From the NCBI GenBank assembly GCA_045591525.1, contig JAZNTA010000191.1, positions 31,461 through 95,460 of the forward strand: a DNA stretch of 64,000 nucleotides, written 5' to 3'. Below are positions 23,541 to 51,812 of this stretch, one piece after another. The stretch comes from Acutalibacteraceae bacterium (GTDB lineage: Bacteria; Bacillota; Clostridia; Oscillospirales; Acutalibacteraceae). Position numbers and translations under genes: made by a program. Below the pieces are notes generated by a model. That model saw only the letters and a list, made by a program, of their open reading frames with translations. It was not told the origin of the DNA and ran no database searches. Numbering within the stretch: position 1 is the stretch's first letter; each line of letters begins with the position of its first letter.

Positions 23541-23570
23541 ATGTTGTGATATTTGTCGAAATTTGCCATA
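23541..23570 (-). promoter_or_regulatory. degenerate copy of the 31-bp double-repeat box
   Basis: 'TGTTGTGATatttgtcgaaatTTGCCATA' about 136 nt upstream of the 23405 start, the same distance as the good copies. Confidence 0.3.
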
Positions 23571-23576
23571 CAAAAG

Positions 23577-24923
23577 TTAAACTAAAGCTGGTTCGGTGTC
23601 TTTTGGTGTAAAATCTACGATTCTTTTTGTTGACTGTGGTTGTGTTACATTATTCAAATAACTAACAGCATTGAACATGTTAACGATACCGTGTTTGACC
23701 GGAATATCTGCCTTTTCACAAGAGTTATACAAAACCTGCTTTATTTGTTCATTGTTTAAGTTGGGGTGTTGAGTTTTTATCATTGCACAAACCGAAGTTA
23801 CAAACGGTGCAGCACAAGAGGTTCCTGTAAACTCAACATAATCTCCATCTGCATAAGTAGATGGTAATTTTAAAATCTCTCCTGGTGCTGCTACTTTTAC
23901 CCAATCACCAAATGCTGCCTTTTTGTATAATTCATCTGATTGATTAATTGCAGTAACAGATACAACGCCATCACAAGCAGCAGGATACTGTGGTTGTTCA
24001 CTTCTGACATTGCCGACAGATGCAATGTGTAAGGGCTTTGATATCCCACTATTGAATTTAGCAAACATACCATAACTACTGTTAATAAAATCCACACCAT
24101 CAAGTTCCGCTTGCATTTCAGCTAAATGCAAAATGGATAATGTTGTTTCATTAGCACTGAAAATTTTATATGATACAAACTTTACATTTGGGAGTGTGTT
24201 TTCCATCAGAACGCTACAAACCCTTGCTCCGTGTCCTGTAGTGGAAGCAAACGGGTTTTCTGGTTCTTCTGTGAAACAATGTGCAGCCACAAGTCGATAT
24301 GCAAAGTCATCATTTCCCATTTCAACACCATCGTCGATTATACCTACTATAACATCAGGTAAATTATTGAGGTGTTTATTTTTCAATATGTATTCAAATG
24401 CTTCTTTACTTTTGATGCGTTCATATCCCCAAGAGTGCTGAATTTCAGCTCTGTGAAGCGAAAGTTTAGATGTGTCAGATGAGTGTGTCTTTTCCAGTTC
24501 AATTACGATATCAGGAACAACAAGTTTTATATTTGGGTTTTTGTTGTATTTTGTGAAAGCTGAGAAGGCATCAAGAGGAGTAGCATATTGTAATATATGC
24601 ATATCACCATAGCCTGAAATATGATCTATTGCTCCGTATTTATCAAAAGCTACATCAGCGTAAACAATTAGTCGTTTTGATGTAAAATGCTTTTTTGTGT
24701 AATCTTTCCCTACATCATTGTTATTTAAATTATAGTGGTTTACAAATCGCAAAACCTCTTTTGAAAAATCTTTCAATTTAACAGATTGTATTCTTTGTAT
24801 GGAATTATTCTTTGCGTTCAAATTGTTAGTGGAGTTATCATTCATTGTTATATTTACCGTCTTTATAAATATATTTTTAATGTTATTTAAGAATACACAT
24901 ATAATCATACTCTTAAATAACAC
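23577..24923 (-). CDS. subtilisin-like S8 serine peptidase without signal peptide
   Basis: Catalytic 'GIIDDGV' (D), 'TTGHGARV' (H), 'GTSCAAPFV' (S); start uncertain (24923, 24908 or 24845). Confidence 0.75.
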   Translation of the reverse strand: MLFKSMIICVFLNNIKNIFIKTVNITMNDNSTNNLNAKNNSIQRIQSVKLKDFSKEVLRFVNHYNLNNNDVGKDYTKKHFTSKRLIVYADVAFDKYGAIDHISGYGDMHILQYATPLDAFSAFTKYNKNPNIKLVVPDIVIELEKTHSSDTSKLSLHRAEIQHSWGYERIKSKEAFEYILKNKHLNNLPDVIVGIIDDGVEMGNDDFAYRLVAAHCFTEEPENPFASTTGHGARVCSVLMENTLPNVKFVSYKIFSANETTLSILHLAEMQAELDGVDFINSSYGMFAKFNSGISKPLHIASVGNVRSEQPQYPAACDGVVSVTAINQSDELYKKAAFGDWVKVAAPGEILKLPSTYADGDYVEFTGTSCAAPFVTSVCAMIKTQHPNLNNEQIKQVLYNSCEKADIPVKHGIVNMFNAVSYLNNVTQPQSTKRIVDFTPKDTEPALV

Positions 24924-25162
24924 CCCATTTATATATGCTGTTTCTCATATAAACATTTCAGCATTTTTGTGGAGTTTTTGTTTTATACATTTCCAATGTA
25001 ATTTTAGTTATAAATTTGTATTATTTGACTTAAATCATCACTTTTATGGAAATCATTTGCGCACAATGAAACTGATATTATGATATCAGTTTTTATTAGA
25101 TATGGGGATTATATGTAAAATATAACATTAATATTATCCGTATATTAGAGTTTTTGACAAAA

Positions 25163-25192
25163 TGCAAGAAATAAATGTAGAAACGCAAGAAA
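25163..25192 (-). promoter_or_regulatory. double-repeat box a (candidate LytTR site)
   Basis: + strand TGCAAGAAAtaaatgtagaaaCGCAAGAAA, 21-bp period; upstream of the S8 peptidase gene. Confidence 0.55.
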
Positions 25193-25218
25193 ATATGTTG
25201 AACAAACCAAAACAATAA

Positions 25219-25251
25219 AAGACGATACACCAAACCCAAGTGTATCGTCTT
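25219..25251 (-). terminator. intrinsic terminator of the 27531-25275 operon
   Basis: AAGACGATACAC...GTGTATCGTCTT 12-bp stem. Confidence 0.65.
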
Positions 25252-25274
25252 ATTTAAATGGTTAGATATAAGCG

Positions 25275-25463
25275 TTAATCTAAATCTCTTAACTTATCTT
25301 TAATTAATGCAACGTAATTACGTCTTTGAGTATCATTTTTGATACATTCTGCACTTGATAAAGCCTGATTCAACAATTCTCTTTTTCTGTTTTTATTTGA
25401 AACAGAATCAGCAGCCTCTATCAATGTTTCAACATTTGAAACCCAACCATCTTCCCATGCCAT
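25275..25463 (-). CDS. small hydrophilic hypothetical protein
   Basis: 62 aa, last gene of a four-gene minus-strand operon. Confidence 0.45.
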   Translation of the reverse strand: MAWEDGWVSNVETLIEAADSVSNKNRKRELLNQALSSAECIKNDTQRRNYVALIKDKLRDLD

Positions 25464-25498: not shown

Positions 25499-26029
25499 TT
25501 ATTTATCGATTGAATCATCTAAAGAAGTTTTTTCTTTTTGAGGGAGTGAAGAAACATCACTCCATTCTCCATTTGTTAACTGGTCTAGCCGTTCTTCAAG
25601 TAATTCAATTTCATATGGTAAAATAAAAATTGTATATATATTTCTATAATGTTTTAAAAACTTTTTGTTATAAAACCAGAGAACGCCCATAATCAAAACA
25701 AAAGCTATAAAACAAAGAAACAGTATATAAATTATTGTGTTACATAAATTGAAACATTTTAAATTCTTTATAGATTCAAAGACAATATTATCTAAAATGC
25801 AACCAATTAAATAACCAACAAGTCCTACTGCAATGCTTAACGATACTTCGTTTTTAGCAAAGCTCCGTTGTTTTGCTTCCACCAAAAGGTTTGTTACAAG
25901 GTTTTTATCGTTTATTTGAAAATATGTATTTTTAAATTCCTGTCTGATTTCATTAACAGTCGAGAAATCAACTTTATTTTTCTTTTTTATTTGTTTGTAC
26001 AAATCATAGCCATATAAATTTTTGTCCAT
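25499..26029 (-). CDS. two-TM membrane protein, 'LPYE' family (paralogue of 35110-35637)
   Basis: Same size and topology as 35110-35637, shared 'F(I/V)LPYE..L..E(R/K)L' motif after TM2. Confidence 0.6.
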   Translation of the reverse strand: MDKNLYGYDLYKQIKKKNKVDFSTVNEIRQEFKNTYFQINDKNLVTNLLVEAKQRSFAKNEVSLSIAVGLVGYLIGCILDNIVFESIKNLKCFNLCNTIIYILFLCFIAFVLIMGVLWFYNKKFLKHYRNIYTIFILPYEIELLEERLDQLTNGEWSDVSSLPQKEKTSLDDSIDK

Positions 26030-26167
26030 ATGTTATTTCTCCTCCGAACCATTTTAAACCACAAGTTAAACAAAACCACTGGTGTGCGGTATAGTATTTT
26101 ATTTTCAAACAAAATTATTGCAAAGTATGTTTATAAATTACTTGAAAGAATTATTTAGAAGTTTTTA

Positions 26168-26962
26168 TCATTCTGATTTGTTCAAATCCGCTAATGCCTT
26201 TTGGCAACGTGTTTCTATTTCTATCAAATTCTTATCAAGATCCATTAACTGTTTTGCCAAACATTCTTCAAGTTCTTCAGTATATGTGTTTATAATATAA
26301 TTTGATTCATTTAAAGAAAATTCACTCGAAAGTGTGGTGTATAATTGTTTCATAATATGATACGCATTATATAATCTAAACACATCAACTCCGGTTGTAT
26401 TCGTTTTAATATTTAGTGTTCTTTCTCGTACATAATTATCAGTAATTTGAATTGTTTTCGTCATAGCGATTCGCAAATAATATAAAGCTTCATGAAAATA
26501 ATATGTTCTTAAATTTATATCACTATTTGACTTCATACCTTTAATAAAATTTTCAGATATAATTAAATTATCAAAGGCAATATTATCAAAATCTGCAATT
26601 ATTTCATCTATTTTTTTCTGAGAAACATCAACTGAATGGCTTCTTTTGTTGAAAATAAGATTATTCACTTTTCTTGTAATAAACGAATATATAGTTTTTG
26701 TTACTATAAAAAGGATACAATACAAAACCACTGCAACAATAAAAAATATAACAATCGATTTAATCGTTGATGGCGTCATATCTTTGATTATATATTTTTC
26801 TGTAAGAAAAGCGATAAATAGCGATAACGCAGAGGAGAAAACAACTTCAATAAGATTTACGACATTATCATTCTTTTTTTCAGACGTTTCTTCCATAAGT
26901 GAGGCTGTTTTTTTTATCATTTGATGATTGGTTAATTCTAAACATTTTATTTTCTCATACAT
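26168..26962 (-). CDS. hypothetical two-TM membrane protein
   Basis: 264 aa, two N-proximal TM helices, helical C-terminal domain. Confidence 0.55.
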   Translation of the reverse strand: MYEKIKCLELTNHQMIKKTASLMEETSEKKNDNVVNLIEVVFSSALSLFIAFLTEKYIIKDMTPSTIKSIVIFFIVAVVLYCILFIVTKTIYSFITRKVNNLIFNKRSHSVDVSQKKIDEIIADFDNIAFDNLIISENFIKGMKSNSDINLRTYYFHEALYYLRIAMTKTIQITDNYVRERTLNIKTNTTGVDVFRLYNAYHIMKQLYTTLSSEFSLNESNYIINTYTEELEECLAKQLMDLDKNLIEIETRCQKALADLNKSE

Positions 26963-26976
26963 AGCCTAAACTCCTT

Positions 26977-27531
26977 TCACTTAAAAATTTTATTTAATGG
27001 ACTTGTATGATTCTCTAAATCATCTTTTATATGATTAGCAGCGTGTTGTTCACCATTTATACCATTATTCCTACGAAAAATATTATATGCATTTGCTTGC
27101 ATTTCATAAAAGGCTTCTTTATAAGTTTTCCCAACTAGTTTTTTTAATTCTTCAGGTATATCGTTTCCTTCTTTTTCTATATCTTCTACCAGTTCACATA
27201 CTGCTTGAAAAATATACCAAAGTTTATAAGGGATTTTTATACAATTATGTGTATTACCGTCTATACTTATGTATATCTTTCTTAACGACGCAACTTCTCG
27301 CTTTGATGTTTTTAAATAATAATACCTTTTACCTAATCCCAGAATTTCATCAGTGCGTTTTCTTATAGCGAAATAACCATTACCCTTGTCCGTTTGACGA
27401 CCATAATTTCTGTTTCTACCTATAAACTCTAAAAGTTTATCAAAATCATCTCCGCTAAAACTTTCTTTGTCTACAACATCAACATTGAAATATTTGTAAT
27501 ACCCCTGATTAATAATGTGTTTCTTGTTCAT
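26977..27531 (-). CDS. hypothetical protein
   Basis: 184 aa, first gene of the operon. Confidence 0.55.
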   Translation of the reverse strand: MNKKHIINQGYYKYFNVDVVDKESFSGDDFDKLLEFIGRNRNYGRQTDKGNGYFAIRKRTDEILGLGKRYYYLKTSKREVASLRKIYISIDGNTHNCIKIPYKLWYIFQAVCELVEDIEKEGNDIPEELKKLVGKTYKEAFYEMQANAYNIFRRNNGINGEQHAANHIKDDLENHTSPLNKIFK

Positions 27532-27661
27532 ATATATGTTCCTTTCTCATTTCAAAGAATTCTAATCACACTGCTCTATATTTTCTGAAATCAGAGCGTA
27601 TTATAGAATGTTATTTAAATTGTAATATAAAATCCATATAAACACCTACATTTTTACAAAA

Positions 27662-27691
27662 CGCAAGAAATAATTGTCGAATTGCAAGGAT
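27662..27691 (-). promoter_or_regulatory. double-repeat box b
   Basis: CGCAAGAAAtaattgtcgaatTGCAAGGA, 131 nt upstream of the start at 27531. Confidence 0.6.
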
Positions 27692-27733
27692 TTTGGGAGA
27701 AATTTGTCGAAACAAGATATTGTTTGAACATAA

Positions 27734-28058: not shown

Positions 28059-28691
28059 TTAACTGTTAATATATAATTTGATAATATCTTTTACATTTTC
28101 AGGCAAATCTCCGGAAATAATATGGCTAAAACCTATGTCGTTATTATCTTTTTTATATATACTTCCACTTTCATTTAACTGAAAAACTCCTCCTATCTCA
28201 CTAGACACTGCAAAAAACACTATTGAGTCCTTGTTTATCTTATCCACAGAAACCTCAAAAGATGACAAAGCATTTAAAATATCATTAATGTGATCGTTAT
28301 TTGTAATTGTTATATGTTTATCTCCCCCACCTAAACTCATAATCAGTTTATCAGTCATATCTGATGTAGGAAACTCTGGTAGTTTATAGTCATTTTTTAT
28401 ATAAACTTCATTCCCTAAAATTTCCTCTCGATAAATAATATTTCTATCTTTATCAGTTTTTAAAACAGACATTCCGAATAAATTATAATAACCAATATCA
28501 GTCCGATACCAACTGTTATCCGAACCAAAAGGTATAAAATTACCATTAAGATAATCGAATACTGTATATTTTTCATTTAGGAATTTGATTTCGTTTTTCC
28601 CTCTTGTGTAACTTCTAAATGCAACTGAAACAGAAAAATATAAAATAATTATAGACAAAACAACTAGAATTGTTTTTTTTATTATTTTCAT
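28059..28691 (-). CDS. putative immunity protein for RHS toxin 1 (membrane-anchored, extracytoplasmic)
   Basis: Begins 19 nt after the RHS stop; N-terminal anchor 'ILVVLSIIILYFSVSVAF'. Confidence 0.5.
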   Translation of the reverse strand: MKIIKKTILVVLSIIILYFSVSVAFRSYTRGKNEIKFLNEKYTVFDYLNGNFIPFGSDNSWYRTDIGYYNLFGMSVLKTDKDRNIIYREEILGNEVYIKNDYKLPEFPTSDMTDKLIMSLGGGDKHITITNNDHINDILNALSSFEVSVDKINKDSIVFFAVSSEIGGVFQLNESGSIYKKDNNDIGFSHIISGDLPENVKDIIKLYINS

Positions 28692-28710
28692 CTAAAAACA
28701 CCTTTTTTAA

Positions 28711-31700
28711 TTATGAAGTAATTTTTTGCCATCCTAATTTTGCCAAAGTTGGAATTAATTTTTTCAAAGCAGAATTCAATTTACCTTTTTTTACTAGTTT
28801 TTCTACATCACTAAATTTAGACCTATCCTCCTCAAATATGTATGCATTATAATCAAAACCCAGTTCCCCCGACCTTGCGCCACAATCAGTAACCTCAGAT
28901 TTGGATGTGTATATACCTTTTTTATACCAGACATAATGAGCAATCAATTCATAAGCAATACCGTTAATCGTTCTCTTTTTTAATGCATTTTCGTTTATTT
29001 TTCTCGCTAATTTTCTCAGTACGTATGCGAATGTTTTAGTTTTTCCTGTTCCAAATATTTCATCAATATTATCCTGCTCATTCCACACCTGTATTACACC
29101 ATTTTTATAATCTGCGAAAACACTTACCTTACCTATAGAACAAAATAATCTATATGAGTAATATAAAGCTCTGTAGTATCCTGAATAACTATTTTTATAT
29201 TTTTTTCCTGAAATAGAATTCTTAGCATACCCACTCTCATCAACATAATTCACCGGATCATTTTCACAATAAGCAAATGGATTATAACTTATTTCAAATT
29301 GAGTAATACCTATGTAATTTACATCATCACAATTTATAAATCTGCAAATTTCAGGGTCATAATAACGGCTTTGAAGATAATACATACCTATTTCAGAATC
29401 GTAATAATATGAACGGTATCTGAACGGATTAAGGTTACCAATTTCGGTATTTGAACCTGTAACAGAAATAACTGAACCCCAAGGGTCGTAAGCGTATTCA
29501 GAAACAATATCCCCCGAACTGTCAGCAATAGCTATGATATCATCTTGTACATTTTTAATGTAGAAATACTGATTATCATTATATGTAAAACCGATTATTT
29601 CACCTGTATTATCATAATAGAAATGCAAAGTATTTGTTCCGTCTGTTTGCTCAATTATGTCTGTTCCATTAAGATAATATTTTGTTGTTACGCCGTTAAC
29701 GGTTTTACTTGTTCTTATGCCATCTTCATTATATTTATATGTATTTGAACCGTAAGAAGCAAGCTGCCTGCCCATTGTCCATGTAAGTGTGTTTCCTTTA
29801 TATGATATGGGATTACCAATGGCATCATAAGATATATTTTGTCCGCTAAACTTTGCAAGTTTATCTTTCCAAACATCGTCCCTAGTCCAACTATCATAAT
29901 CCTTATAACTATATACTTTTTCTCCGTTGTTGTCTACTGAAACAACATATTCTCTCCGAGTAAGAATGTTGCCTCTTTCATCATAAGTATATTCCCATTT
30001 TGTTGTACCGTTTTCGGCAGAAACAAGCTGATGCTTATTATCATAAGTATACACCGTTGTTTCAGAATTTGTAATAGTTTCCCCTTGATTACCCTCGCTT
30101 TCTCTTGTTAAAGTTTCTGCTACAATATTACCGTTAGAATCATAAGAATAATTATAAGAAAAGGTCAGGTCGTCTACCGTATTTTTTAACACGGTAACCC
30201 TTGAGTTTGCACCGTAACCATATTCGGTTGAAATATTACTGTTAACAGTTTCTTTTGTTAAATTTCCTGATAAATCCTCTGCAGATGTCTTTGAGAATAG
30301 CAACGTATCATTTTTACTGAAAGTATCTTCATTATTATTTGATACTAACTTATATTCATTTGTACCTATATTAACTATTTCTCCGTCAAAACTATTTTCG
30401 TCAGTTTCATCCTTTTCACATTTTCTTACAGAATATAATGTCATATTTTCTGAATCCGAAACAACAACCCTATTTCCTTCAGTTATTTTATTAAGATTGT
30501 TAACTAAATCTTTGGTTGTGGTTGTTATGCTTCCGTCTTCATTATGAACATTACAACTTTCGTACAAAACATAATCATTCAAACAGATAATTTCCCAATC
30601 ATCATCTGTATATAAATATGTTACCAGCTGTTCGTTTGCATAATCAGCAGAAGTAACATCTTGTTTTGTATCTTCAGTATATTCATATTCAACGATTTGT
30701 TGAGTGCCTACATTAGCAGTTGAAATGTTTCCGAAAGTGTTATATGTAAAATTATATTCCTTGTATGAATGACTCTCAAGGTTACCGAAATCATCATACC
30801 CGTATGTTCCAACAAAACCGTAAGTATCAACCCGTTCTGTTAACAAGTTATTAATATATGTATAGTCCGTATCCCCTTCAGGTGCATCGACTTTAATTAT
30901 ATTACCCTCGTTATCGTATGTATATGTTGTAGTTTGGTCGTCATAAGTTTCTTCTATTACTCTACCCAATAAGTCGTATGTTGTTGAAACAGAAAACTCA
31001 GTTTCTTCACCTTCGTCATATACAGTTTCAATAAGCTGATTCCATTCATTAAACACATAACTTGTAGTGTTCACCGTAGTTATTGTTTGAATTTCAGTGT
31101 CATCTTCGTTTTGCGTTTGTTCATTTTCAGTAATAATTTCTTTGGTGACATTACCAAAATTATCGTACTCATATTCTTCAATATACGTTTCAATCCAACC
31201 AACACCAAAACTGCTACTGTCTGAATATCTTGTAACACTACCTCTTGAATTATATGAATATAATGTTCTTTCAGAGTTAACAAGTGTTCCGTCGGTATTT
31301 CTTACTAAAATAGTCTCTTCAATAACATTGTCACTTATTTCATCAGCATAAATTGTAACCGTTTTAGTTTTTGCTACTGCCTCTGCGTCAGCAAATGTTG
31401 TTGTGTTTGTTACAGTAAAAGTACCTGCTGCAACTTCAAGTGTAGTAATAACTCTGCCATTTTCATCATATTTATAAAAAATATAACTTCCGTCATCATA
31501 TTTATCATAGAGATCAGAAAGTTCTTCCTCTTCCATGTACTCGTTATCTGTATATTCATCTAGTGCAGTATCATTATCCGTATCAGTATTATCGTCATCA
31601 GCTCTTTCAATTACATAAGCAACATTAGAAAATATATCAGCTGTCAACGAATTATTGATATATGAGGGATAATAGCCAGCTTTATCTGTATAATTAAATC

Positions 31701-35637: not shown

Positions 35638-35692
35638 TATTAATATCTCCCCATAAACGAATCTAAAATTTTAACATTACCTACAACATGAC

Positions 35693-43700: not shown

Positions 43701-43753
43701 ATAATCATCAAAAAACTCAAAACAACTGATAAAAACTTACTGATCTTTTTCAT
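37787..43753 (-). CDS. RHS/YD-repeat polymorphic toxin 2 (Sec signal, DNRLRE-like and CBM-like domains, RHS shell, TM segment plus AHH/HNH-like C-terminal nuclease)
   Basis: Signal peptide ...PVFAAE; YD repeats; core end 'NNPVNMVDYGGD'; C-terminal 'QQKHHIAPRN...NLVMLDAAFHRALN'. Confidence 0.9.
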   Translation of the reverse strand: MKKISKFLSVVLSFLMIMGIFSVSNPVFAAEIQNNEHLTQTIEQFANRTDANDFAVEIISERDKYTKVFQNVSGTKTAVVSATPIHYETENGWENIDNTLIEFNEITGKVYKNKNNDFTTTIPKELSSNKKVQIEKEGYSLSFELVGTDVFSKNKKIKGNKKSKNKKHQVLENGVETDFLDKTSAISFENVGENTSVEYAVTSTGLKENIILNKKPASEVTYKYIINAKKLNATLNKDKSIVFKNPDGQIIFEIPAPIMYDANNIISDDIDVNLTGKNGKYTLIYKPSYEWLSGDVEYPVVIDPVINSANEDLGIKDAVVCEGEPTTNYGDIEFLYTCKSDSGDYLSYIDLSSYYILKNGAKIKSVLLSLYYAGGLFVDNDTTIAAYTVTSDWSESTVTYNTKPTTINSLIDRRPVSEGDAARYITFDVTKAYTINEDTYGVCIRQRDAVESEVLTMFASSEHPTASQQPYFTIEYYESQGVEEQFDYHAFDVGRAGTAYFNDFTEQIYIERDELGLSGINMPVQIKRYFNSGFGGTNSINYYALSGFASPYGFGWRTNYNQMIEYHDEIDGKEYILYCNGDGQTTYFEKTDTVSEGIRTWKEVADTFSNTDGYTLYLPSTHDGNVANKLQYATIKDSSGQVYEFNSYGLLTKIITSEENSENCINISYASDNLRIDKITDGVGREYRFTYTEYEDWLLPLLTSIQAFSPSGSAITVTNDSGTNVPYKMTYTYEFSNYCGTNGLPILASATYPDGETVYYTANDNLISLKNIDGYSIEFNYLDTSTVISEKVYNQSGTSLTEGGVLTVTDVNAYEKTFSDKSNVEIIKQFDMYGRVINTTNPDGSIIARIYSDNYKSQGYVSYSMYNTVEQNSTSEETNLVTNGSFSTDVSGWTISNTSKVKRNVNYDCVTDNATPGSLQMSGTQSGIRYASQIIDVENGISGDEYRLDYFTKNTTHSHMVLELLYWNTVIIEARNNVNGDETWETVAYVDANPYNTSWQKYSYAFDIDFEYNEIQITLAYYFQYGTVRFDDVSLVNTYKATASQNAGNNNTSSGTSEATSGCECNGCTTPNCPCTEHSDNCILPYCNRGYSFENTSQKKSFSMTDGEKTMAMEQNVSGNYYGSQTDLNGIYNGYNYDPMNGQLLSMSDGKDEVTTFSYDAMSRLKKVSNDVNGLISGNKMETSYSYENDRIKSITHNGFSYNYEYNAWGNPTAVKVGEQELVSYTYDSADKTRDRLNRITYGNGDYTVYTYDDADGNITSIESYSADGTLVADYVYGYVDGQVQTITSVTDNCTVKYTDNGWEYYNSQNATGTPIYFKGFETDENGDEIPVEILGGLRYTENKGTVDSDSVEGTTTTISSFGTPSDRKYNLSSVTDYFGRTDNKSFSYILSQESGVNHSIKNNVEYTYRDYENEEEPGKIFTTSQVTSYKTSFSEIVGSGDDSTITETVLNGKQYYYEYDGNGNITRISCDDYASGVLPIATEICSYVYDEVGQLVRENDAIAGVTSVYVYDKGGNLVQRKFYEYSTGDLPEEPDDTWDYTYDSTWKDKLTAFEDFQIDTDAMGNPLNYFTIGISNEISGILEWNGRQLSAVTVGGERYEYSYNSDGLRTKAVFRDSETNEINSVFNYFWENGKMTGYCTTDADGNVAAVLKNFFDNSGEQIGYEIHLVEDNEYIRFFFEKNLQGDIIGVYNEEGEKVLTYWYDSWGNVSPTYNKENSDILAQSVLAVIFTPITYRGYMYDPHTGLYYLQSRYYNPTYGRFLNADTIEILEATQGTPLGANLFAYCNNNPVNMVDYGGDLAGFIVLGGMTIAITTFLQYAFVMLILCVVIIMLCNPYVLDAISGAVYNFGNSVLTGVDGFVELIRRTYTEVEAELSDVIDDILTRARNNKPDSSQQKHHIAPRNVYFSIKGELVYCSEYLDKSYISINDPVNLVMLDAAFHRALNTNIYYSLIHKSTESAYEKGGYYGVYSILLFYKILLSGLNTLY

Positions 43754-43881
43754 AATATACCTCCTATTTTTGTTTTGTATTTATTGCTAACAAAAACAAC
43801 GTTCACCTCCATATATTTAAATACTATATCCCAATTCAATTTTAACACTTACACTATCACTTGTCAGTTAACCATTCAAAC

Positions 43882-43912
43882 TGCAAGAAAATATTGTCAA
43901 ATTGCAAGAAAA
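43882..43912 (-). promoter_or_regulatory. double-repeat box e
   Basis: Identical to box c; 129 nt upstream of the RHS2 ATG. Confidence 0.65.
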
Positions 43913-43932
43913 AGCAATTCATAAATAACAAA

Positions 43933-43963
43933 AACGACACACAAAACAAAGTTGTGTATCGTT
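43933..43963 (-). terminator. intrinsic terminator
   Basis: AACGACACAC...GTGTATCGTT then a T run on the minus strand. Confidence 0.6.
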
Positions 43964-43983
43964 TCTGCAGACAAGAGTTTATA

Positions 43984-46900
43984 CTATTGTAGATAAGCTA
44001 CAATTTGGCTATACTGAGGTTCTTTAAAAGACGGGTAGTTATATCGGTGCTTTATATTCTCACAAATACAAATACAGGAAAGTGCTATTATCATAGCAAG
44101 TCTAAGCACTATATTTTGTACAACAAAAGTATATGTTGTAAACAAAACTAAACTAGCACATAATGACAAAGCAATGGTAAAATAACTGTAATCAATAACT
44201 TTCATTAATTTGTAAACAATAAAACATATAAAAAATATACTGGCTAAAAACAACAAGTACATAGAGTTAAATGGCAGTATTGAAACTTCACTTATAGCAC
44301 TGTTTTTAACTTCCCATCCCTTGTATACTAAATTATAAATTTGAATCCTATAAAAAAGATATATTACTGTTTGTGATATAAATAGGAGAAAAACTATTGC
44401 AATAATAACTTTATTTAATATTGGAGCATTTATTGCTCCGTTATATACGAATAGATCATTAAATTTGTTTTGTTTACACCTGTTCCAATGATAGGAAAAC
44501 TCAACTGAAGAAATCATCTTAAAATCAGGTATATTAATTAAATCACTATGAATCTCACCCGACTCATCACTTAAAATATAACTAATTAAAAATTTCACAC
44601 GATTATCAATCAGTGATATATTTGGATTAAAGCCATCTTTAATTAATTCTTTAACAAGATATATTAGTGTATATAAAACTTCAATTTCAGAATAATCTAA
44701 TTTTTCTATCCAACCATACTTTCCTTGCAGAACATTAACACTCTTTTTTACTTTATAATCTAATGTATTTACAAACCTTTTTAATTTTAAAAAACTAAGC
44801 AATTCGTTATCTTCAGCCATAAACAACAATCCCATTATTGCTAAATCTTTATTATATTTAGAAGCGTTATAAAGATATATATTATATATTGCATCAAAAC
44901 GATACTCTTTTGCAAGGCATTCAATAAAATCTCTTTTCTCATCAAGTCTATTGATTATGTCTATTATTAAATTCGAATAGTCTTTTATCTCTTCTCCTGA
45001 AAATCTTACCAAATCATCTATTTTTATACGATTTATGTTAGAATTTAGAGCACTCTTTATTTGTTCATCTGGACCTAAAGACATTAACCCAACAATAATA
45101 TTTACACTTGTTTGTTTACTTTTGCAATAATCCAATTTTGCTATTAATTCTTGTAGAACTAAGCTTCTAACGGCTCTGTATTGCTGCGCTATATAACCAA
45201 TTGCTTGTAAATTTATTATTTCATCGTAATCTATTGATGGTAAAATATTTTTTAATATATTAACAACATTCTTTTCATCGGATAGCGTTCTTTCAACAAG
45301 AACATCCAACACTGTTTTTGTATCATACAAATATTTAGATAAAAAATCCAATACTATTTCATCATTTTCTACTAAGGATAAATAGAAAAATATTATATTT
45401 TCTTTACCTTTAGTATATTGAAAAGAGCTAGGTGGTGTGCAAGTGTTTTTAACAAAATATAAAGCAACAAAATACTCATAAAAAGAACGATGTCTAAACC
45501 GTAATAAATTAGTGTCTGTTTTCTCTAAAAGGCCGCTTTGGTTTATTATGTTGTCTAAAACCTCTTGCGTTCTACCGTGATAGTATATTTTTTCCGTTTC
45601 GTGAGAACTCCACAATTTAAGAGCTGTTGATTCGGATATATTATTTCCATTACCTGAATATATTTCGTACGCTAATTGTGACAACAACTCAACTTTTATT
45701 TGAACATTTGGTAGTAATGTAAATCTTTTAAAACGTTTTAATCTTGATTTTTGCTCCTCCCAGTTTTCTAATAAACATTTACAGCATTGTTCGTATAAAT
45801 GTGTTTTACTTTGGGAAAACACAAAATCTGATTTACAATATGTGTGAGTTACCATTGTAAGCAGCAATGGGTTTGAAACTACATTTTCTAATTGAACAGT
45901 ATTAATTAGTCTGTGAAAAAATTGTGTATCGGATTTATCTTTTGGGAAAGACCATTTAGACAAGAACTCGCGTATTTGTTCCTTTGAAAGAGGAGAAAGA
46001 TACACTGTATTTTCAATTCTAATATTTTCGAAGCGTTCCGATTCATAAACTTGTGTTCTAGATGTTATAATATAGTTACATTCACTATAAGTGTTTATGA
46101 ACTCTAATAAAAGTTTCGAAAATTCAAGTCTATCATCTATGTTAACAATCTCGTCGTAACCATCGAACATTAACACAAATTTTCCTGTACTTAAAAAACG
46201 TTTTAAAACTTTTGCAGTTTTTTCTTTTTTTTCACTAAACAACCACCCCCGCTTTACACCCGAAATTTCAGAAATTTTTTTATAAATAAACTCAATAATA
46301 TCTTCTTCACTACTACACTTATAAACATCAGAAAAATTAATGATAATTGGAATAAGTCTATTATTAGACGCCTTTCTCTGTGACGAATTTAACGTTCTTT
46401 TTAAAAATTTTTTATTATTAGGGCGTGCTGTATCATATACACCATCCAATATGTCCAAAGCTAATTTATATAAAGAAAAAGTTTTGCCTTCGCCTGCATT
46501 ACCAAGTATTGCATAAACAGAAGGGCTACCACTAAGTTTTTTAGTAAAATAATTTTGCAACTTATATTCTTTAACTCCGTCTTTTTGGTGTACTTTTATT
46601 GAAACGTAAATATCGTTAGGTAAATTATTTGAAAACCATGAATGTTCTTGGCTTGGAAATAAGGTATATCTTAGATTTCTTGTGTATTTGTATTTTATTA
46701 AACGAGAGGTTTTATTAAATATTATCAAAAAAGAAAAAAATGCAAGTAATCCACTCGATACTATACTTATTATCTCTGGCGTAATATATTCCTTGATAAA
46801 GGAATCATTCCCAGTATTCAAAACACCAGTATCGCTTTCGCTATATATAACAGTATTTTGATTTCTATCACTATCAGATGATTCCACACTTTGAACTAAT

Positions 46901-47436
46901 TCCTCTAATTTGTTTTGAGAGTAGTCAGCGTTATTATGCGTGTGTAAAAATTCACACTTAAAAGAGGCTATTCTAAATGTTTCATCAATAAATTTGATAG
47001 TTCTATCGTTATATATAACATCATATGTTTTAATTTTATTTTCCAGTGGAAAACATATAACGCATGAATTATCACTTGTGAATATTATAATAACATCTGT
47101 TTTACTACCAGGCGTTTGTTCACTTTGAGTCCTATTCCACATAAAATCAGGGTTACTTTTAACTACATGTGAAACAAGTTCTAGAGCTTGATCTGTTATC
47201 GGTTGGCGCTGATATTCCCCTTCTATATCCATTTTTAAACTTGCATATTTATTTTTTATTGTTAAAAGCATTTTTTCGCTTATATTTTCGGGGATTTTAT
47301 CAATGCTACCTTCATATTCATTCTGTGTTCTTAATTGTTCATAATCAATTGATAAGTCTGTGCCATTTTCAAACAACATAGAAAAACTAATAAAACAATA
47401 GGCAATGATAATTATAATCAGTACAATTCTCTTCAA
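43984..47436 (-). CDS. membrane-embedded NACHT/STAND P-loop NTPase
   Basis: Walker A 'GNAGEGKTF', Walker B 'FVLMFDGYDEI', 'IITSRT'; TM helices at the N-terminus, near residue 250 and about four at the C-terminus; start TTG 47436 after GAGGGA (ATG 47508 alternative). Confidence 0.8.
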   Translation of the reverse strand: MKRIVLIIIIIAYCFISFSMLFENGTDLSIDYEQLRTQNEYEGSIDKIPENISEKMLLTIKNKYASLKMDIEGEYQRQPITDQALELVSHVVKSNPDFMWNRTQSEQTPGSKTDVIIIFTSDNSCVICFPLENKIKTYDVIYNDRTIKFIDETFRIASFKCEFLHTHNNADYSQNKLEELVQSVESSDSDRNQNTVIYSESDTGVLNTGNDSFIKEYITPEIISIVSSGLLAFFSFLIIFNKTSRLIKYKYTRNLRYTLFPSQEHSWFSNNLPNDIYVSIKVHQKDGVKEYKLQNYFTKKLSGSPSVYAILGNAGEGKTFSLYKLALDILDGVYDTARPNNKKFLKRTLNSSQRKASNNRLIPIIINFSDVYKCSSEEDIIEFIYKKISEISGVKRGWLFSEKKEKTAKVLKRFLSTGKFVLMFDGYDEIVNIDDRLEFSKLLLEFINTYSECNYIITSRTQVYESERFENIRIENTVYLSPLSKEQIREFLSKWSFPKDKSDTQFFHRLINTVQLENVVSNPLLLTMVTHTYCKSDFVFSQSKTHLYEQCCKCLLENWEEQKSRLKRFKRFTLLPNVQIKVELLSQLAYEIYSGNGNNISESTALKLWSSHETEKIYYHGRTQEVLDNIINQSGLLEKTDTNLLRFRHRSFYEYFVALYFVKNTCTPPSSFQYTKGKENIIFFYLSLVENDEIVLDFLSKYLYDTKTVLDVLVERTLSDEKNVVNILKNILPSIDYDEIINLQAIGYIAQQYRAVRSLVLQELIAKLDYCKSKQTSVNIIVGLMSLGPDEQIKSALNSNINRIKIDDLVRFSGEEIKDYSNLIIDIINRLDEKRDFIECLAKEYRFDAIYNIYLYNASKYNKDLAIMGLLFMAEDNELLSFLKLKRFVNTLDYKVKKSVNVLQGKYGWIEKLDYSEIEVLYTLIYLVKELIKDGFNPNISLIDNRVKFLISYILSDESGEIHSDLINIPDFKMISSVEFSYHWNRCKQNKFNDLFVYNGAINAPILNKVIIAIVFLLFISQTVIYLFYRIQIYNLVYKGWEVKNSAISEVSILPFNSMYLLFLASIFFICFIVYKLMKVIDYSYFTIALSLCASLVLFTTYTFVVQNIVLRLAMIIALSCICICENIKHRYNYPSFKEPQYSQIVAYLQ

Positions 47437-47575
47437 TACTATTCCCTCATTAAATATTAATTTTATACTAAACTCACTGTTTACTGAAAAAACTAATAAG
47501 CAAAACATATATAAAAATTAGTTTAATAAATATTTATATCATAATTGATGATATAAAAAAGTGTTTTTTACAAAC

Positions 47576-47606
47576 TGCAAGAAAATATTGTCGAAATGCA
47601 AGATTT
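47576..47606 (-). promoter_or_regulatory. double-repeat box f
   Basis: TGCAAGAAAAtattgtcgaaaTGCAAGATTT upstream of the NACHT gene. Confidence 0.6.
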
Positions 47607-47644
47607 TGAAGCGAAATCTAACGAAATATTTTTATATAGATATA

Positions 47645-47731: not shown

Positions 47732-48292
47732 TTAAATTTTACAACTAATTTTAAGAACATCTACAGCATCTTGTATTGTAATTATTCCATCTTGATTTGC
47801 ATCTGCGAGATATTTCTCCGTTTCCGTACTTATTTGTGTCTGACCTGCTGCATCCCTTAATATTGTACGTGCATCATCAGTCGTGATTTTACCATCTTGA
47901 TCTATATCACCTAAATAAGAGTTATTGGGCGTCATATAATAATCTTTGAAAGCTTTTTCCACATAATTATCTTTAGAAAGGGCTTCGAAAATACTATTAA
48001 ATTTATCTTCATCCAATTCCTGTAAGTTTAAAACTAAAATCAAATAGTTTTCACTAGAAACATTTCCATCTTCAGAAGTGATTTCTACTTTTTCAATTGG
48101 ATAAGTGCTTTGCAAGTGATTAATAATAATTTCGGCTTCTTGACTATATTCGTCTTTTATAATTACAATAATCTTGCGAAAAGAATATTTTCCATTCTCA
48201 TCAACACCCCAACAATTAGTTGCATAAGCATTACTTATAAACAAACCAATTAATAACACTATTAGCACTACAATACTTATGAATTTATTCAT
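47732..48292 (-). CDS. secreted dockerin-containing protein
   Basis: Signal peptide ...SNAYA; C-terminal type-I dockerin repeats 'GDIDQDGKITTDDAR' and 'ADANQDGIITIQDAV'. Confidence 0.75.
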   Translation of the reverse strand: MNKFISIVVLIVLLIGLFISNAYATNCWGVDENGKYSFRKIIVIIKDEYSQEAEIIINHLQSTYPIEKVEITSEDGNVSSENYLILVLNLQELDEDKFNSIFEALSKDNYVEKAFKDYYMTPNNSYLGDIDQDGKITTDDARTILRDAAGQTQISTETEKYLADANQDGIITIQDAVDVLKISCKI

Positions 48293-48305
48293 CGCTATTA
48301 CCTTT

Positions 48306-49095
48306 TTACTGATAAAGCGAGAATTCTAGCTGTTGGCCACTCGCTACACGTAAAATTTCTCTCGCATCATCTTGTGAAATATTTGCATCTCCGTTAACAT
48401 CCGCTAATACAAATTGTACAACTGTAACACTGCTTGCATTATTGGAAGCTGTAAGTGCTAAGGATGCATCAGCTGTAGTTATTGTACCATCACTGTTTAC
48501 ATCACCCATAATATAACTATCAGTTGAACTTGTTTCTATATAATATCCTATAGCGGAATTAAAAAATGTTGAGGCATCCTTCACGGTATCATATGAAATC
48601 CAGCCATAACCTCCAAGTCCCCAATCTGTGCCCCAAGAATTTATAAATTTGAATGCACCACTATCCCCCATATTGTCATCATAACCAATTAAGCATATGG
48701 TATGGTTAGCCTGTTTAGAGCCTGAAACAGTATCATATATACTATTGTTTGAGTTTAAATTAGTGAAGTCTGGGTATATTTCAATACCTATTACAACACC
48801 GTAATTCTGATAAATTTTTTCTTTTATATTCTTAATACCCGCTATTGTATGGGTAGTGCATTTATATAAGTTGGCATTTGCTATTTGTCTTGCTTTGGAA
48901 AGTTTGAGGTTTTATCGACAGACGCTGGTAATGTTAATCTTGTTTCTGCTGTTGGTTCCATACGTTCTAATATTTCTGCGTATGAATCTGGTATCAACCC
49001 CGTTTTATAGGTGAAATTTTCACTAGCCGAGCCTGGTACCTGTAAATATATCAGTATTAGAGATAAAGATATTATTACTGAAAAAACTTTTTCAT
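48306..49095 (-). pseudogene. degraded papain-like (C1) peptidase-dockerin gene
   Basis: Intact C-terminal half ('ANHTICLIGYDD', 'NSWGTDWGLGGYGWISY', dockerin). The signal peptide and 'LPASVD' lie in another frame, after a frameshift in the A6 run at 49081-49086. The catalytic-Cys region is absent. Confidence 0.65.
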
Positions 49096-49233
49096 ACTAT
49101 TTCTTCCTTTCATTTTTTGTATTAAGTTTATCATTGTGTACACATCGTCTAAAGTAGTATCCTCCTTTTCAAATGGTCTTCTTTATTTTAAATTTATCAG
49201 TATTCTCTATATCTGTCACTATAAATAACAAAC

Positions 49234-49264
49234 TGCAAGAAAATCTTGTCAAATTGCAAGAAAT
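49234..49264 (-). promoter_or_regulatory. double-repeat box g
   Basis: TGCAAGAAAAtcttgtcaaatTGCAAGAAAT, 139 nt upstream of the pseudogene ATG. Confidence 0.6.
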
Positions 49265-49271
49265 ATAAAAT

Positions 49272-49298
49272 AACGGTACGACAATTTGCCGTACCGTT
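49272..49298 (-). terminator. intrinsic terminator
   Basis: AACGGTACG...CGTACCGTT then a T-rich tail on the minus strand. Confidence 0.65.
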
Positions 49299-49303
49299 AA
49301 ACT

Positions 49304-50590
49304 CTATCTGTTTTTCAATATCATTATAGTTGTGATGAATTCTCTATTGTGTTCATCATATTCCCAAGTATAATCGCCATTATATTTTTTCAATGTGTTT
49401 TTTAGACTTTTCAATCCAAAGCCATGAAATCTTTTATTGTTTTTAGTTGTTTTTAAAATTAAATTATCAGAAATCGGTTTTTCATCACAACTATTTCTTA
49501 CAACAACTATATCATATGTGTTCCTATGATCTGTAAAGAAATCAACATATTTATCTTTTGATTTTTCTGCCGCTTCGACTGCATTATCTAATACATTACC
49601 CAAAATTGCAACTAAATCATACATCTCTACACCCAGAAGATTTGAGAGCCTAACATCATAAGTAAAATTTATTCCTTTCAATTCACACTCTGTAATGTAT
49701 TTATTTATGATAACATCAAGATAATGATTGCCACTATGAGCTGTTTGGCTATATTTTCTCAACTCTACTTGCATTTTGGTAAGATATTTATCAATTTCTT
49801 CATTAGAACTTAACTCTTTAATTGCAGCAAGATGTTTTTGTGTATCGTGAGCATATATAGCTAAATTCTCATTCTGTTGTTCAAGTATCTGATAATATGT
49901 TTTATCATTTTCCAATTTAGTTAGTTCACTTTCCAACCGCAATAATTTTGTTTCTTTGTCAACACTGCGTCTATAAGAAACAAAAATCAAAATAGTTGAC
50001 AACAAAAGCGAAAAACTTATTATTGAAATTATATACTTATAAGTTTGCGACAAATGAAAATCACTATTTATACTCCACAAAAACAACAATACAACAATTA
50101 CAACAATAGGATAAAAATAATATGTTTTTGGTATCGGAGTTGAGGTATCTTTTGTTTTAATAAATTTAATTAACAAAAGGCAACAAAAGAAATAAATAGT
50201 CTTACTTATAACAACATTTAACAAATATTGCGACACATCATGTGAGTTTGCAATTACATCTCTGTTTAACACTATGGATATAATAAAAATTGTTATGTAT
50301 TCAGTACAAGTTGACATGATATCAAGAATAATTGATAAAAAAATGGATTGCTTTAAATTAATATTAAAACAACAAAAAGCAAAAACCATGTTTATTATAA
50401 GGAAACAAACAAGATTCAACCATATGGTTGAAAAGAAAAGATATACTGTTGCACCTAATCCAAATGTTATTAACCCTATAGCACAGCAAAAAAGATGGCT
50501 CTTTTTTCTATTGCTAACTTGGCTGAAAAAATAATATGAAATAAACAGTTCAAGTAAATATACTGCTGATACAGACAAAATTTCTGACAT
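49304..50590 (-). CDS. AgrC-like (HPK10-type) sensor histidine kinase
   Basis: 6-7 N-terminal TM helices, H-box 'YAHDTQKHL', GHKL ATPase 'LGNVLDNAVEA...HGFGLKS'. Confidence 0.8.
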   Translation of the reverse strand: MSEILSVSAVYLLELFISYYFFSQVSNRKKSHLFCCAIGLITFGLGATVYLFFSTIWLNLVCFLIINMVFAFCCFNINLKQSIFLSIILDIMSTCTEYITIFIISIVLNRDVIANSHDVSQYLLNVVISKTIYFFCCLLLIKFIKTKDTSTPIPKTYYFYPIVVIVVLLFLWSINSDFHLSQTYKYIISIISFSLLLSTILIFVSYRRSVDKETKLLRLESELTKLENDKTYYQILEQQNENLAIYAHDTQKHLAAIKELSSNEEIDKYLTKMQVELRKYSQTAHSGNHYLDVIINKYITECELKGINFTYDVRLSNLLGVEMYDLVAILGNVLDNAVEAAEKSKDKYVDFFTDHRNTYDIVVVRNSCDEKPISDNLILKTTKNNKRFHGFGLKSLKNTLKKYNGDYTWEYDEHNREFITTIMILKNR

Positions 50591-50591
50591 G

Positions 50592-51290
50592 TCATTTACC
50601 TCTTAAATACATAAACCAATATTTATGGAAATCTGCTTGTTTTCTCGTTGCAACGGATATTCTGATATCTTCGTTAATAAAAACTTCTGTATAAGAGTAC
50701 TTTGTAACATAATGCAGATTAATTAGAAAACTTTTATGAACTTGATAAAAAAATGTATTAGGTAATTTTTCTTTCCAATATTCCAAAGTCTGAGTTATTT
50801 TATATTCACCGTTTTTTGTGACAACAATAATCTCTCTGTTTTCTCGCTTAATATAATAGATATCGTCTACCAATACCTTTAAATGTGTTCCTCCTTGAGC
50901 AAGATAAACATCAACATATGTTTCGTCTAAATACTCTAATGCTTTATCTAATCCAGAATATAATCTATTAACATCAAAAGGTTTCTCAAAGAACCTAAAA
51001 ACTCGCAAATCCATAGCGTCATCCTGAAATTCGGGATAATTGGTTACGAAAAAAACCACTACTTTACTGTTTCTTCGTTTTAATTCTTTTGCAACAGTTA
51101 AACCATCAATATTACCCAATTGGATATCTAAGAAAGCCAAGTCAAAAACATCTTTACCTGTGATAATCTCTTGGGCAGATGTTGAAACGACATATTCTGG
51201 TTTAATAAAGTGATTTTTCATATATTCTTCAACATGCAATCTCAATTCATCCAAGTAATTGGATTGATCATCACATAAAAGTATTTTCAC
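50592..51290 (-). CDS. LytTR-family response regulator (AgrA-like)
   Basis: Receiver 'ILLCDDQ...FLDIQL'; C-terminal LytTR 'FYQVHKSFLINLHYV'; AGAGGAGG RBS plus GTG 51290. Confidence 0.85.
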   Translation of the reverse strand: MKILLCDDQSNYLDELRLHVEEYMKNHFIKPEYVVSTSAQEIITGKDVFDLAFLDIQLGNIDGLTVAKELKRRNSKVVVFFVTNYPEFQDDAMDLRVFRFFEKPFDVNRLYSGLDKALEYLDETYVDVYLAQGGTHLKVLVDDIYYIKRENREIIVVTKNGEYKITQTLEYWKEKLPNTFFYQVHKSFLINLHYVTKYSYTEVFINEDIRISVATRKQADFHKYWFMYLRGK

Positions 51291-51310
51291 ACAAAGACCT
51301 CCTCTTATAA

Positions 51311-51335
51311 ACAAAAACTACCACGATTGTGGTAG
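51311..51335 (-). terminator. hairpin between the XRE gene and the response regulator (terminator or attenuator)
   Basis: CTACCACaatcGTGGTAG followed by TTTTTGTT on the minus strand. Confidence 0.5.
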
Positions 51336-51362
51336 CAAGTTTAGCACAAATATTATTTTTAG

Positions 51363-51680
51363 TCAAATACTGCCAATATACAGTTCAATAAAAGATTTAA
51401 GAAATTTTTGATTGTCTGGTGGACACTTTGACAACAAACAAATTATATCATTTTCTGTTTTCGTATCAATTCTACCAATAAGATAGTAATCAGGTGTACC
51501 GCCTAAAACTTCACACAAATCTAATATAGTAGATGTTGTAGGTAGACATTTCCCTCTTTCCATGCTTGATATATGGTTTTTGGAAAGAGAAAGTTTTTCA
51601 GCCAATTCTTCTTGTGTTATTGATTTTTCCTTGCGTTTTTGCATTATCCGTATACCAATAAGTCTATTATCAAATTGCAT
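51363..51680 (-). CDS. XRE-family HTH regulator
   Basis: 'ITQEELAEKLSLSKNHISSMERGK' HTH_3 pattern. Confidence 0.8.
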   Translation of the reverse strand: MQFDNRLIGIRIMQKRKEKSITQEELAEKLSLSKNHISSMERGKCLPTTSTILDLCEVLGGTPDYYLIGRIDTKTENDIICLLSKCPPDNQKFLKSFIELYIGSI

Positions 51681-51782
51681 AAAATCACCATTTTTTATTT
51701 ATGGTATCATTTAAAACTAAATGCATAAACAAATTTTGATAGAACTATTCTGTAATATAATTATTTTTACGCATAAAATTTG

Positions 51783-51812
51783 TTTTTTTGTGTAATATTG
51801 TGATTTCTTGCA
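51783..51812 (+). promoter_or_regulatory. partial double-repeat box in + orientation upstream of the agrD-like/agrB genes
   Basis: ATTTCTTGCA (51803-51812) matches the box repeat; the partner about 20 nt upstream (TTTTTTGTG) is degenerate. Confidence 0.35.

Follow-up and report, generated by a model that had tools for sequence, protein, structure and literature searches.

A 21-bp-phased direct-repeat box heads seven cargo units beside an agr-like LytTR system in an Acutalibacteraceae bacterium

The DNA analysed here, hereafter the window, is a 64,000-nt stretch from an Acutalibacteraceae bacterium (assembly GCA_045591525.1, contig JAZNTA010000191.1, positions 31,461 to 95,460 of the forward strand), with a GC content of 32%. 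It carries an agr-like signalling locus and, beside it on the minus strand, seven cargo units, each headed by the same conserved direct-repeat element, which we call the box. An initial reading made without database searches (the sequence-only reading) had proposed that a LytTR response regulator (RR), an AgrC-like histidine kinase (HK), AgrB and an AgrD-like peptide are encoded at this locus, and that they govern the operons behind the box. All four signalling genes are indeed there, three of them recognised by Pfam and the peptide by alignment of its family (Table 1). The RR is identical to database protein P0001; at the place of FxRxHrS, the DNA-binding motif of VirR (PMC2688746), it reads FYQVHKS. 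The agrD-like open reading frame (ORF) overlaps the start of agrB, and its product belongs to a family that aligns over nine loci as ANxT[ST][CS]xxx[FYH]QPK[AV]P (no Pfam AgrD model was applied). The ring Cys of most relatives is Ser in the window (SSTVLHQPK versus TCTVIYQPK), as it is in two related loci, L027 and L033, and this substitution predicts a lactone rather than a thiolactone signal. The agrD-agrB pair is divergent from an operon in which a gene for an XRE-family helix-turn-helix (HTH) protein precedes RR and HK; the XRE gene is syntenic with RR-HK in most relatives (tblastn, gene maps).

Among the cargo genes, the identities first proposed for the S8 peptidase, the two RHS proteins, the NACHT protein and the dockerin protein agree with Pfam. 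What had been taken for a dockerin/C1-peptidase unit stood in its dockerin part; its 'C1 peptidase' is a decayed gene (48306-49095, minus strand), the first one behind the box at 49234. In a three-frame translation its ATG meets a stop after 6 codons, the signal-peptide frame ending after FPKQDK, and the His/Asn half and the dockerin lie in another frame, so that the gene is either a pseudogene or the product of an assembly error. The likely start of the NACHT gene is a TTG at 47436, behind a GAGGG ribosome-binding site. Both RHS proteins contain the RHS_repeat, and their C-terminus and downstream genes diverge from those of a relative that is 96% identical; judged by sequence, the RHS units have the architecture of polymorphic toxins with putative immunity genes, and the contact-dependent delivery named in the sequence-only reading is an assumption. 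PADLOC gave no match for the NACHT protein or for the proteins of unknown function. Two pentapeptide-repeat proteins are also encoded in the window (21945-23477, minus strand; 9529-10596, plus strand), one of them directly 3' of the S8 unit and without a box.

The sequence-only reading had listed good copies of the box at 27662, 35016, 36445, 43882, 47576 and 49234, another at 25163, and a spacing of 21 bp between their direct repeats. We built a position weight matrix (PWM) from these seven minus-strand copies and scanned both strands of the 64 kb, using 50 shuffled windows as control. All seven proved to be real 37-bp boxes, scoring 46-58 bits (34-56 bits in leave-one-out scoring), against a maximum of 6.8 bits in the shuffled windows. 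Beyond the seven boxes, no position on either strand exceeded 8 bits. A strict 32-nt pattern with up to 3 mismatches had 5 matches in the window, where 0.01 are expected.

The repeated unit, TTTCTTGCRnTTyGwmA, occurs twice per box and is longer than originally described, and the phase of 21 bp between the TTTCTTGCR repeats is exact in 7/7 window boxes as well as in 11 boxes from elsewhere. Every box points in the direction of its downstream genes. Box columns hold 1.4-1.5 bits of information each, versus 0.2-0.5 bits in the flanks, and outside the box the intergenic regions cannot be aligned, with the exception of the two RHS units, whose paralogy reaches further than the box. The box sequence itself varies (GCAATTTGACA versus GCGTTTCGACAC). 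The core consensus of LytTR sites is [TA][AC][CA]GTTN[AG][TG]; relative to this consensus, the second repeat (R2, GCAGTTTGT) agrees at 8/9 positions and the first (R1, GCAATTTGA) at about 6/9.

Three boxes (27662, 36445 and 47576) have in common an upstream extension of about 30 nt, TTCGACAAAT(y)TC....CAAAA, located at 27693-27725, 36476-36510 and 47607-47640 on the minus strand, and in these three AAAA or AAAT replaces TTTT before the first CTTGCA. A relic of the extension lies at 23541-23590 on the same strand. The degenerate copy once placed at 23541 is not a box, having only this upstream TTCGACAAAT stretch in common with the three. The shared extension could be a third site or could simply reflect common descent.

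Downstream of the box, an extended -10 element, TGnTAnnnT, starts 36-39 nt past the second CTTGCR in 14 of 18 boxes (7 from the window and 11 from relatives), where the background at the four offsets is 0.9% (binomial P about 1e-25), and in the remaining four the equivalent place is taken by TACAAT, TGaTATAAA or TATAAC. No consistent -35 element was found among the box promoters. Start codons with ribosome-binding sites follow at +107 to +139 nt from the box in six units and at +240 nt or more in the S8 gene, and a hairpin of -16.6 to -23.3 kcal/mol lies within 75 nt upstream in 7/7 boxes; for promoter unit 1 this place is taken by the HK terminator (49271-49299), which directly precedes it. 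The distances to the start codons and the terminator hairpin before each copy had been described correctly, and the fixed distance to the promoter extends to the relatives. In ComE sites, two 9-bp direct repeats with a 12-nt linker give the same 21-bp phase, and two LytTR domains pack on them in tandem (PMC4005675). The box of the window matches this definition of a LytTR site in phase, in orientation and in its position upstream of a promoter that lacks a -35.

Other promoter assignments were tried and rejected. TTGCA would suit a sigma-54 promoter, but no GG element lies at the 5-nt distance that such a promoter requires. A sigma-70 promoter made up of TTGACA in R1 and a -10 in the tail of R2, and so lying within the box, was discarded because the supposed -10 lacks conservation among the boxes, and TATAGT was discarded as the true -10 of the RHS leaders because it is confined to RHS-type leaders and would leave the box some 20 nt further off.

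A second conserved element, the near-palindrome AAATATAGTATTT(R)AA, is present in RHS-type leaders, about 18 nt 3' of the extended -10 and close to where the transcript is predicted to start. It is seen in the window at 34949-34964 and 43816-43831 (minus strand), in L029 at 12121-12136 and in L030-L032, with variants in L011, L015 and L023. A second regulator might use it as an operator, or it may be an element of the 5' untranslated region.

Table 1. Coordinates of the signalling genes, box promoters, cargo units and neighbouring recombinase in the window.
Feature	Position	Strand	Details
RR	50592-51290	-	232 aa, GTG start; Pfam LytTR 4e-19, Response_reg 6e-13; proposed reader of the box
AgrC-like HK	49304-50590	-	HATPase_c_5, Pfam 6e-22; about 7 N-terminal transmembrane segments (hydropathy)
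XRE-family HTH protein	51363-51680	-	Pfam HTH_3 2.5e-13; upstream of the RR-HK genes
AgrD-like pro-peptide	51897-52049	+	50 aa, contains NANNTSSTVLHQPKAPAKL; family alignment, tblastn
AgrB peptide-processing membrane protease	52046-52642	+	Pfam AgrB 1.5e-34, full length
Weak box before agrD-agrB	51804-51877	+	R1 TTTCTTGCA 51804-51812, 9/9; R2 TTTATAGCA 51825-51833, 7/9
Promoter unit 1	49191-49264	-	Box 49228-49264 ATTTCTTGCAATTTGACAAGATTTTCTTGCAGTTTGT; TGaTAAATT, hexamer 49191-49196; PWM 57.4 bits
Promoter unit 2	47533-47606	-	Box 47570-47606; TGaTATAAA, hexamer 47533-47538; hairpin upstream; PWM 57.2 bits
Promoter unit 3	43839-43912	-	Box 43876-43912; TGtTAAAAT, hexamer 43839-43844; terminator 43928-43968 upstream; PWM 55.8 bits
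Promoter unit 4	36403-36475	-	Box 36439-36475; TATAAC at offset 36, without TG; terminator 36516-36551 upstream; PWM 50.9 bits
Promoter unit 5	34972-35046	-	Box 35010-35046; TGcTAATAT, hexamer 34972-34977; hairpin upstream; PWM 58.2 bits
Promoter unit 6	27619-27692	-	Box 27656-27692; TACAAT at offset 37; hairpin upstream; PWM 51.4 bits
Promoter unit 7	25119-25193	-	Box 25157-25193; TGtTATATT, hexamer 25119-25124; terminator 25219-25251 upstream; PWM 46.4 bits
Cargo unit 1	47732-49095	-	Decayed papain-like peptidase-dockerin gene (frame break, stop) and 186-aa dockerin protein; Pfam Dockerin_1
Cargo unit 2	43984-47436	-	NACHT/STAND NTPase with transmembrane segments; Pfam NACHT 1.3e-7
Cargo unit 3	36637-43753	-	RHS toxin 2: signal peptide, CBM96, DUF6531, RHS repeats, AHH nuclease; 378-aa putative immunity gene
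Cargo unit 4	35110-36337	-	Two proteins of unknown function, 3 predicted transmembrane segments each
Cargo unit 5	28059-34887	-	RHS toxin 1: signal peptide, RHS repeats, unknown C-terminus; 210-aa putative immunity gene
Cargo unit 6	25499-27531	-	Three proteins of unknown function (184, 264 and 176 aa), two with transmembrane segments
Cargo unit 7	23577-24923	-	S8 (subtilase) peptidase without signal peptide; leader 240 nt or more; Pfam Peptidase_S8 2.6e-28
Large serine recombinase	54020-55642	+	Pfam; flanks the agrB side; same position in L027, L029-L031

A further degenerate copy, reported at 51803 on the plus strand, stood as a weak box upstream of agrD-agrB (Table 1). A scan with a relaxed version of the architecture detected it, where 0.26 sites per window are expected under a Markov model, and TGaTATCAT (hexamer 51872-51877) follows it 38 nt downstream. 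The same layout aligned upstream of agrD in relatives, and the 37-38-nt geometry recurs in L011, making the weak box a candidate auto-induction promoter of agrD-agrB. In the gap between XRE and RR (51317-51366, minus strand) we noted a sigma-70-like TTGACT-17-TAAACT with a TG and a GC-rich hairpin (51317-51336), and RR-HK may have its own box-independent promoter. The XRE promoter region holds an inverted repeat, AnAGAA-N3-TTCTnT, read from the alignment.

The box was then considered in other genomes, starting either from its sequence or from the RR. An exact degenerate pattern run over 596 Gb of species-representative genomes gave 4 matches, three of them real (42-43 bits) and each adjoining an RR-HK ortholog of 58-63% identity; the fourth, which scores 8.9 bits and falls within an ORF in a high-GC genome, is a chance match. 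A slightly looser pattern run over metagenomes gave 20 loci, of which 9 hold real boxes, 8 of these with an RR and/or HK ortholog and the ninth at a contig end. Both scans together thus yielded 12 further intergenic boxes, and 11 of them, although found by box sequence alone, adjoin an RR/HK ortholog: finding a box nearly always means that the regulator is adjacent. The box is kept at 40-50 bits even where the RR is only 54-69% identical and the flanks are unrelated. The loci L003, L005, L006, L008, L010, L014 and L018 were dismissed as chance, since they score no more than 21 bits or fall within ORFs of the opposite strand, and L007, L012, L013, L017 and L024 had no PWM match above 12 bits.

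Gene order around these boxes is recurrent. The agrB-agrD divergent from XRE-RR-HK, followed by a box, is found in L011, L016, L019, L022 and L023 as in the window; in L019 and L022 the series continues from HK through terminator, box and RHS gene to an S8 gene, these being the loci whose contigs reach that far, while L016 and L023 show RHS-like N-termini only. RR-HK, terminator, box and a large S8/LRR peptidase follow each other in L002 and L004. An auto-regulatory position, before RR-HK, is seen in L001 and L021, with a strong box directly before the RR gene, and in L020, with three tandem 21-bp units there. Starting from the protein, 1035 RR homologs were found at E below 1e-20, the top 120 being at least 56% identical, and in a sample of eight RR lineages, searched for a box within 10 kb, four (91, 69, 64 and 59% identity) have the order HK, terminator, box, RHS, two of them continuing with S8/LRR/dockerin genes. 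No box was found in viral contigs; in a plasmid collection from cultured Clostridia and relatives the best RR homolog was about 30% identical, and the collections searched contained no closer RR match in a named cultured organism.

From the motif, the promoter geometry, the gene set and the co-occurrence with RR/HK genes across lineages, all of which are observed, we infer binding, activation and peptide chemistry as follows. In our judgement the adjacent LytTR regulator very probably uses the box as its activator site, and the box thereby defines an agr-like regulon of insulated cargo units. Promoters with an extended -10 but without a usable -35 would be activated from this site, located upstream of them, and its two 21-bp units would align a pair of LytTR domains of the phosphorylated regulator along the same face of the helix. 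The position of the -10 puts these units at about -71 and -50 from the predicted transcription start sites, from where RNA polymerase would be recruited. AgrB would process the 50-aa AgrD-like peptide into a cyclic signal, probably with a Ser-lactone ring, S-T-V-L-H. On sensing this signal, the AgrC-like kinase would phosphorylate the regulator, and the weak box at agrD-agrB would give positive feedback, with the transcription of RR-HK predicted to be box-independent in this genome. Seven terminator-insulated units would then be switched on together: the two RHS pairs, the NACHT NTPase, the S8 peptidase, the dockerin proteins and the small membrane proteins. As each unit has its own box, units may be gained or lost by recombination between boxes and leave regulation intact. 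What the sequence-only reading of a LytTR/agr regulon leads one to expect at the level of sequence, namely the 21-bp phase, the extended -10, the co-orientation, the agr-like gene set and the co-occurrence, was found throughout, the co-occurrence being the decisive point.

Several observations weigh against this interpretation. The best-conserved bases of the box, TTTCTTGC, lie outside the LytTR core and are unlike the one published for sites of the AgrA/ComE type, and the 'spacer' is conserved as strongly as the repeats, which makes a second protein or a longer footprint possible. The boxes of the two RHS units, 2 of the 7, are paralogous duplicates. A sequence search of solved structures with the RR matched through the receiver domain only. 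The box before agrD is weak, its -10 being only about 6 nt from the ribosome-binding site, and no box precedes the XRE-RR-HK operon of the window. Finally, 4 of the 8 sampled RR lineages (65, 61, 60 and 56% identity) have no box within 10 kb. These four also lack RHS or S8 cargo after HK, and in this sample the converse relation, from regulator to box, holds where cargo is attached. A search for other 21-bp direct repeats in the box-less RR loci gave nothing convincing bar an eroded box after HK in L033. The lineage of 65% identity to which that locus belongs (L033:2461-8400, L034) has an RHS gene that follows agrB, lies on the same strand as agrBD and shows no recognisable box, and a gene for an ECF sigma factor further downstream of HK.

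That the box, as a real promoter operator, is read by another protein, with the LytTR regulator acting elsewhere or indirectly, we regard as unlikely. The candidates are the XRE-family protein, whose gene accompanies RR-HK in most relatives, and a 151-aa protein encoded beside agrB (52956-53411, plus strand; syntenic in L027, L029-L031 and L041), whose Sigma70_r4_2 match is sub-threshold (E 0.02) and whose syntenic 161-aa counterpart in L041 passes Pfam; the conservation of the whole 21-bp unit, beyond 9 bp, would also suit such a reader. However, boxes occur with RR-HK in L001, L002, L004, L020 and L021, where tblastn finds no XRE match and where the examined flanks, some of them short, contain no sigma-like gene. 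XRE proteins normally bind inverted repeats as dimers, whereas the repeats of the box are direct, and the XRE promoter region has the separate inverted repeat mentioned above. Direct repeats 21 bp apart are a hallmark of LytTR sites (PMC4005675). The 151-aa protein is probably a regulator that belongs to the mobile element. Rated lowest is the notion that the boxes are merely copies by descent, a promoter fragment duplicated with the cassettes and no longer under a common regulator: it would account for the upstream extension common to three boxes and for the RHS units being paralogous beyond the box (the RHS2-type leader of the close relative L027 and the RHS1 leader of the window are 77% identical over 180 nt), but not for seven intergenic regions that are otherwise unalignable, for the persistence of 40-50-bit boxes beside diverged regulators and unrelated flanks, or for the preserved spacing to the -10.

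Recombination at the box deserves separate consideration, since the sequence-only reading had offered a cassette junction as its own alternative. The close relative L027, whose RR is 91% identical and which shares 95.7% nucleotide identity with the window over 6.4 kb, is collinear with window positions 55603-49228 and then resumes at 43912, which means that the window holds 5.3 kb extra, made up exactly of the NACHT unit and the dockerin/peptidase unit. The two breakpoints fall inside boxes (49228-49264 and 43876-43912), and the box of L027 is chimeric between the two flanks. On this sequence comparison units are indeed gained and lost as modules, and that part of the proposal stood; a dedicated recombination site is not indicated, as a single indel between 30-37-bp repeats would be expected from ordinary homologous recombination. 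It is accordingly very unlikely, in our view, that the box is primarily an integron-like cassette joint used by the neighbouring serine recombinase, its promoter function being secondary. This recombinase is syntenic beside agrB, but it sits at the island edge, like whole-element integrases, and in some relatives the same module lies beside a tyrosine integrase instead. The repeats, moreover, are direct and not the imperfect inverted repeats of attC-type sites, a joint would have no need of a terminator and a fixed-distance extended -10 in each unit, and in three lineages the box stands alone before RR-HK. A milder version, in which the regulator site doubles as the joint of a plug-and-play array (terminator, box, cargo) on an integrative element, and exchange between boxes would add, remove or reshuffle cargo, is conceivable, though we do not favour it. 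The conserved linkage to recombinases, the evidence at hand on this point, suggests that the island is probably mobile and that the serine recombinase probably moves it.

Retaining the activator-site interpretation, the locus is a variant of a classical theme, in which a LytTR regulator controls several toxin or bacteriocin operons (VirR boxes, pln, blp/com, agr). VirR of Clostridium perfringens is a LytTR-family regulator, some targets of which lie on mobile DNA. The cargo of pln and blp consists of antagonism and immunity genes, as here, and AgrA of Staphylococcus aureus uses direct-repeat sites upstream of promoters with a poor -35 (P2/P3, psm). AgrB, AgrD, an AgrC-like kinase and a LytTR regulator, the components of S. 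aureus agr, are all present in the window, but they are split between divergent agrD-agrB and XRE-RR-HK genes instead of forming a single agrBDCA operon; no RNAIII-like effector was found, nor any Rfam RNA within the island, and the box directly heads many units of structural genes.

The C. perfringens Agr-like/VirS/VirR system is similar in that agrBD is encoded apart from the two-component system (PMC2688746, PMC7492741) and in that the regulator binds two imperfect direct repeats, whose spacing is critical, before several toxin promoters (PMC2688746). In contrast, the box sequence here is unrelated, with a unit of 21 bp versus 12-bp boxes. RHS toxins, a NACHT NTPase and an S8 peptidase take the place of pore-forming toxins or a regulatory RNA as targets, and the target units are clustered beside the system, each insulated by a terminator. 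The pln locus of Lactiplantibacillus plantarum and the blp/com loci of Streptococcus pneumoniae likewise have adjacent operons headed by a 21-bp-phased direct-repeat pair (PMC4005675), and they too combine peptide pheromone, kinase and LytTR regulator in one locus with an auto-induction loop. They differ in using a double-glycine leader peptide with an ABC exporter where the window has an AgrB/AgrD-type cyclic peptide, and small bacteriocins where it has 2000-aa RHS proteins; here, in addition, the spacer is conserved and an XRE gene precedes the regulator.

Polymorphic toxins of Bacillus subtilis (wapAI, and LXG/T7SS toxins such as YwqJ) also change expression with the quorum-sensing state (PMC12935306). 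That case involves the ComQXPA/Rap-Phr network and chromosomal loci, and no LytTR box, agr-type peptide or cis-element shared by toxin units is described for it (PMC12935306). Integron attC arrays resemble the locus in that units are bounded by a repeated element and close relatives differ with breakpoints in that element; here, however, the repeats are direct and do not form a foldable imperfect palindrome, the units have their own promoter and terminator, no IntI-type integrase is present, and the element also occurs singly before a regulator gene. In the literature searched, we came across no paper that connects RHS toxins with a LytTR/agr system.

A cis-element, a regulator and a predicted peptide are now concrete for a large family of agr-like systems, and in any relative with an assembled genome the members of the regulon can be identified from the box. 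As far as sequence can tell, peptide quorum sensing would be linked directly to RHS polymorphic toxins in Gram-positive anaerobes, and the succession of an RHS toxin and a large S8/LRR/dockerin protease in several lineages suggests a density-timed antagonism programme on integrative elements. Were the plug-and-play array true, every newcomer unit would be wired into peptide quorum sensing automatically, and uncultured Clostridia of gut and rumen would time interbacterial killing and a STAND-type, possibly defensive, NTPase by cell density, and would do so through a mobile, self-contained regulon. The insulated design of box plus cargo may further serve as a natural template for synthetic density-switched expression in Clostridia.

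The remainder of the window provides the context of the island. Positions 1-20647 hold a conjugative element module with TrbL, a VirB4/TraG-like ATPase, an NlpC/P60 protein, a MobL relaxase, a Toprim primase and a type IV coupling protein, and a tyrosine integrase (19739-20647) ends it. On the other side lies a CBASS-like defence operon (56732-59515, plus strand), in which a DncV-like CD-NTase (56732-57790) is followed by an E1/E2 (ThiF and Prok-E2_B) protein (57797-59515). Rfam matches above the gathering score are a pemK RNA motif (53672-53771, plus strand) shortly before the gene of the serine recombinase, a Gut-1 RNA (61108-61178, minus strand), which hints that the bacterium comes from the gut, and a DUF3800-XI RNA (13120-13166, plus strand).

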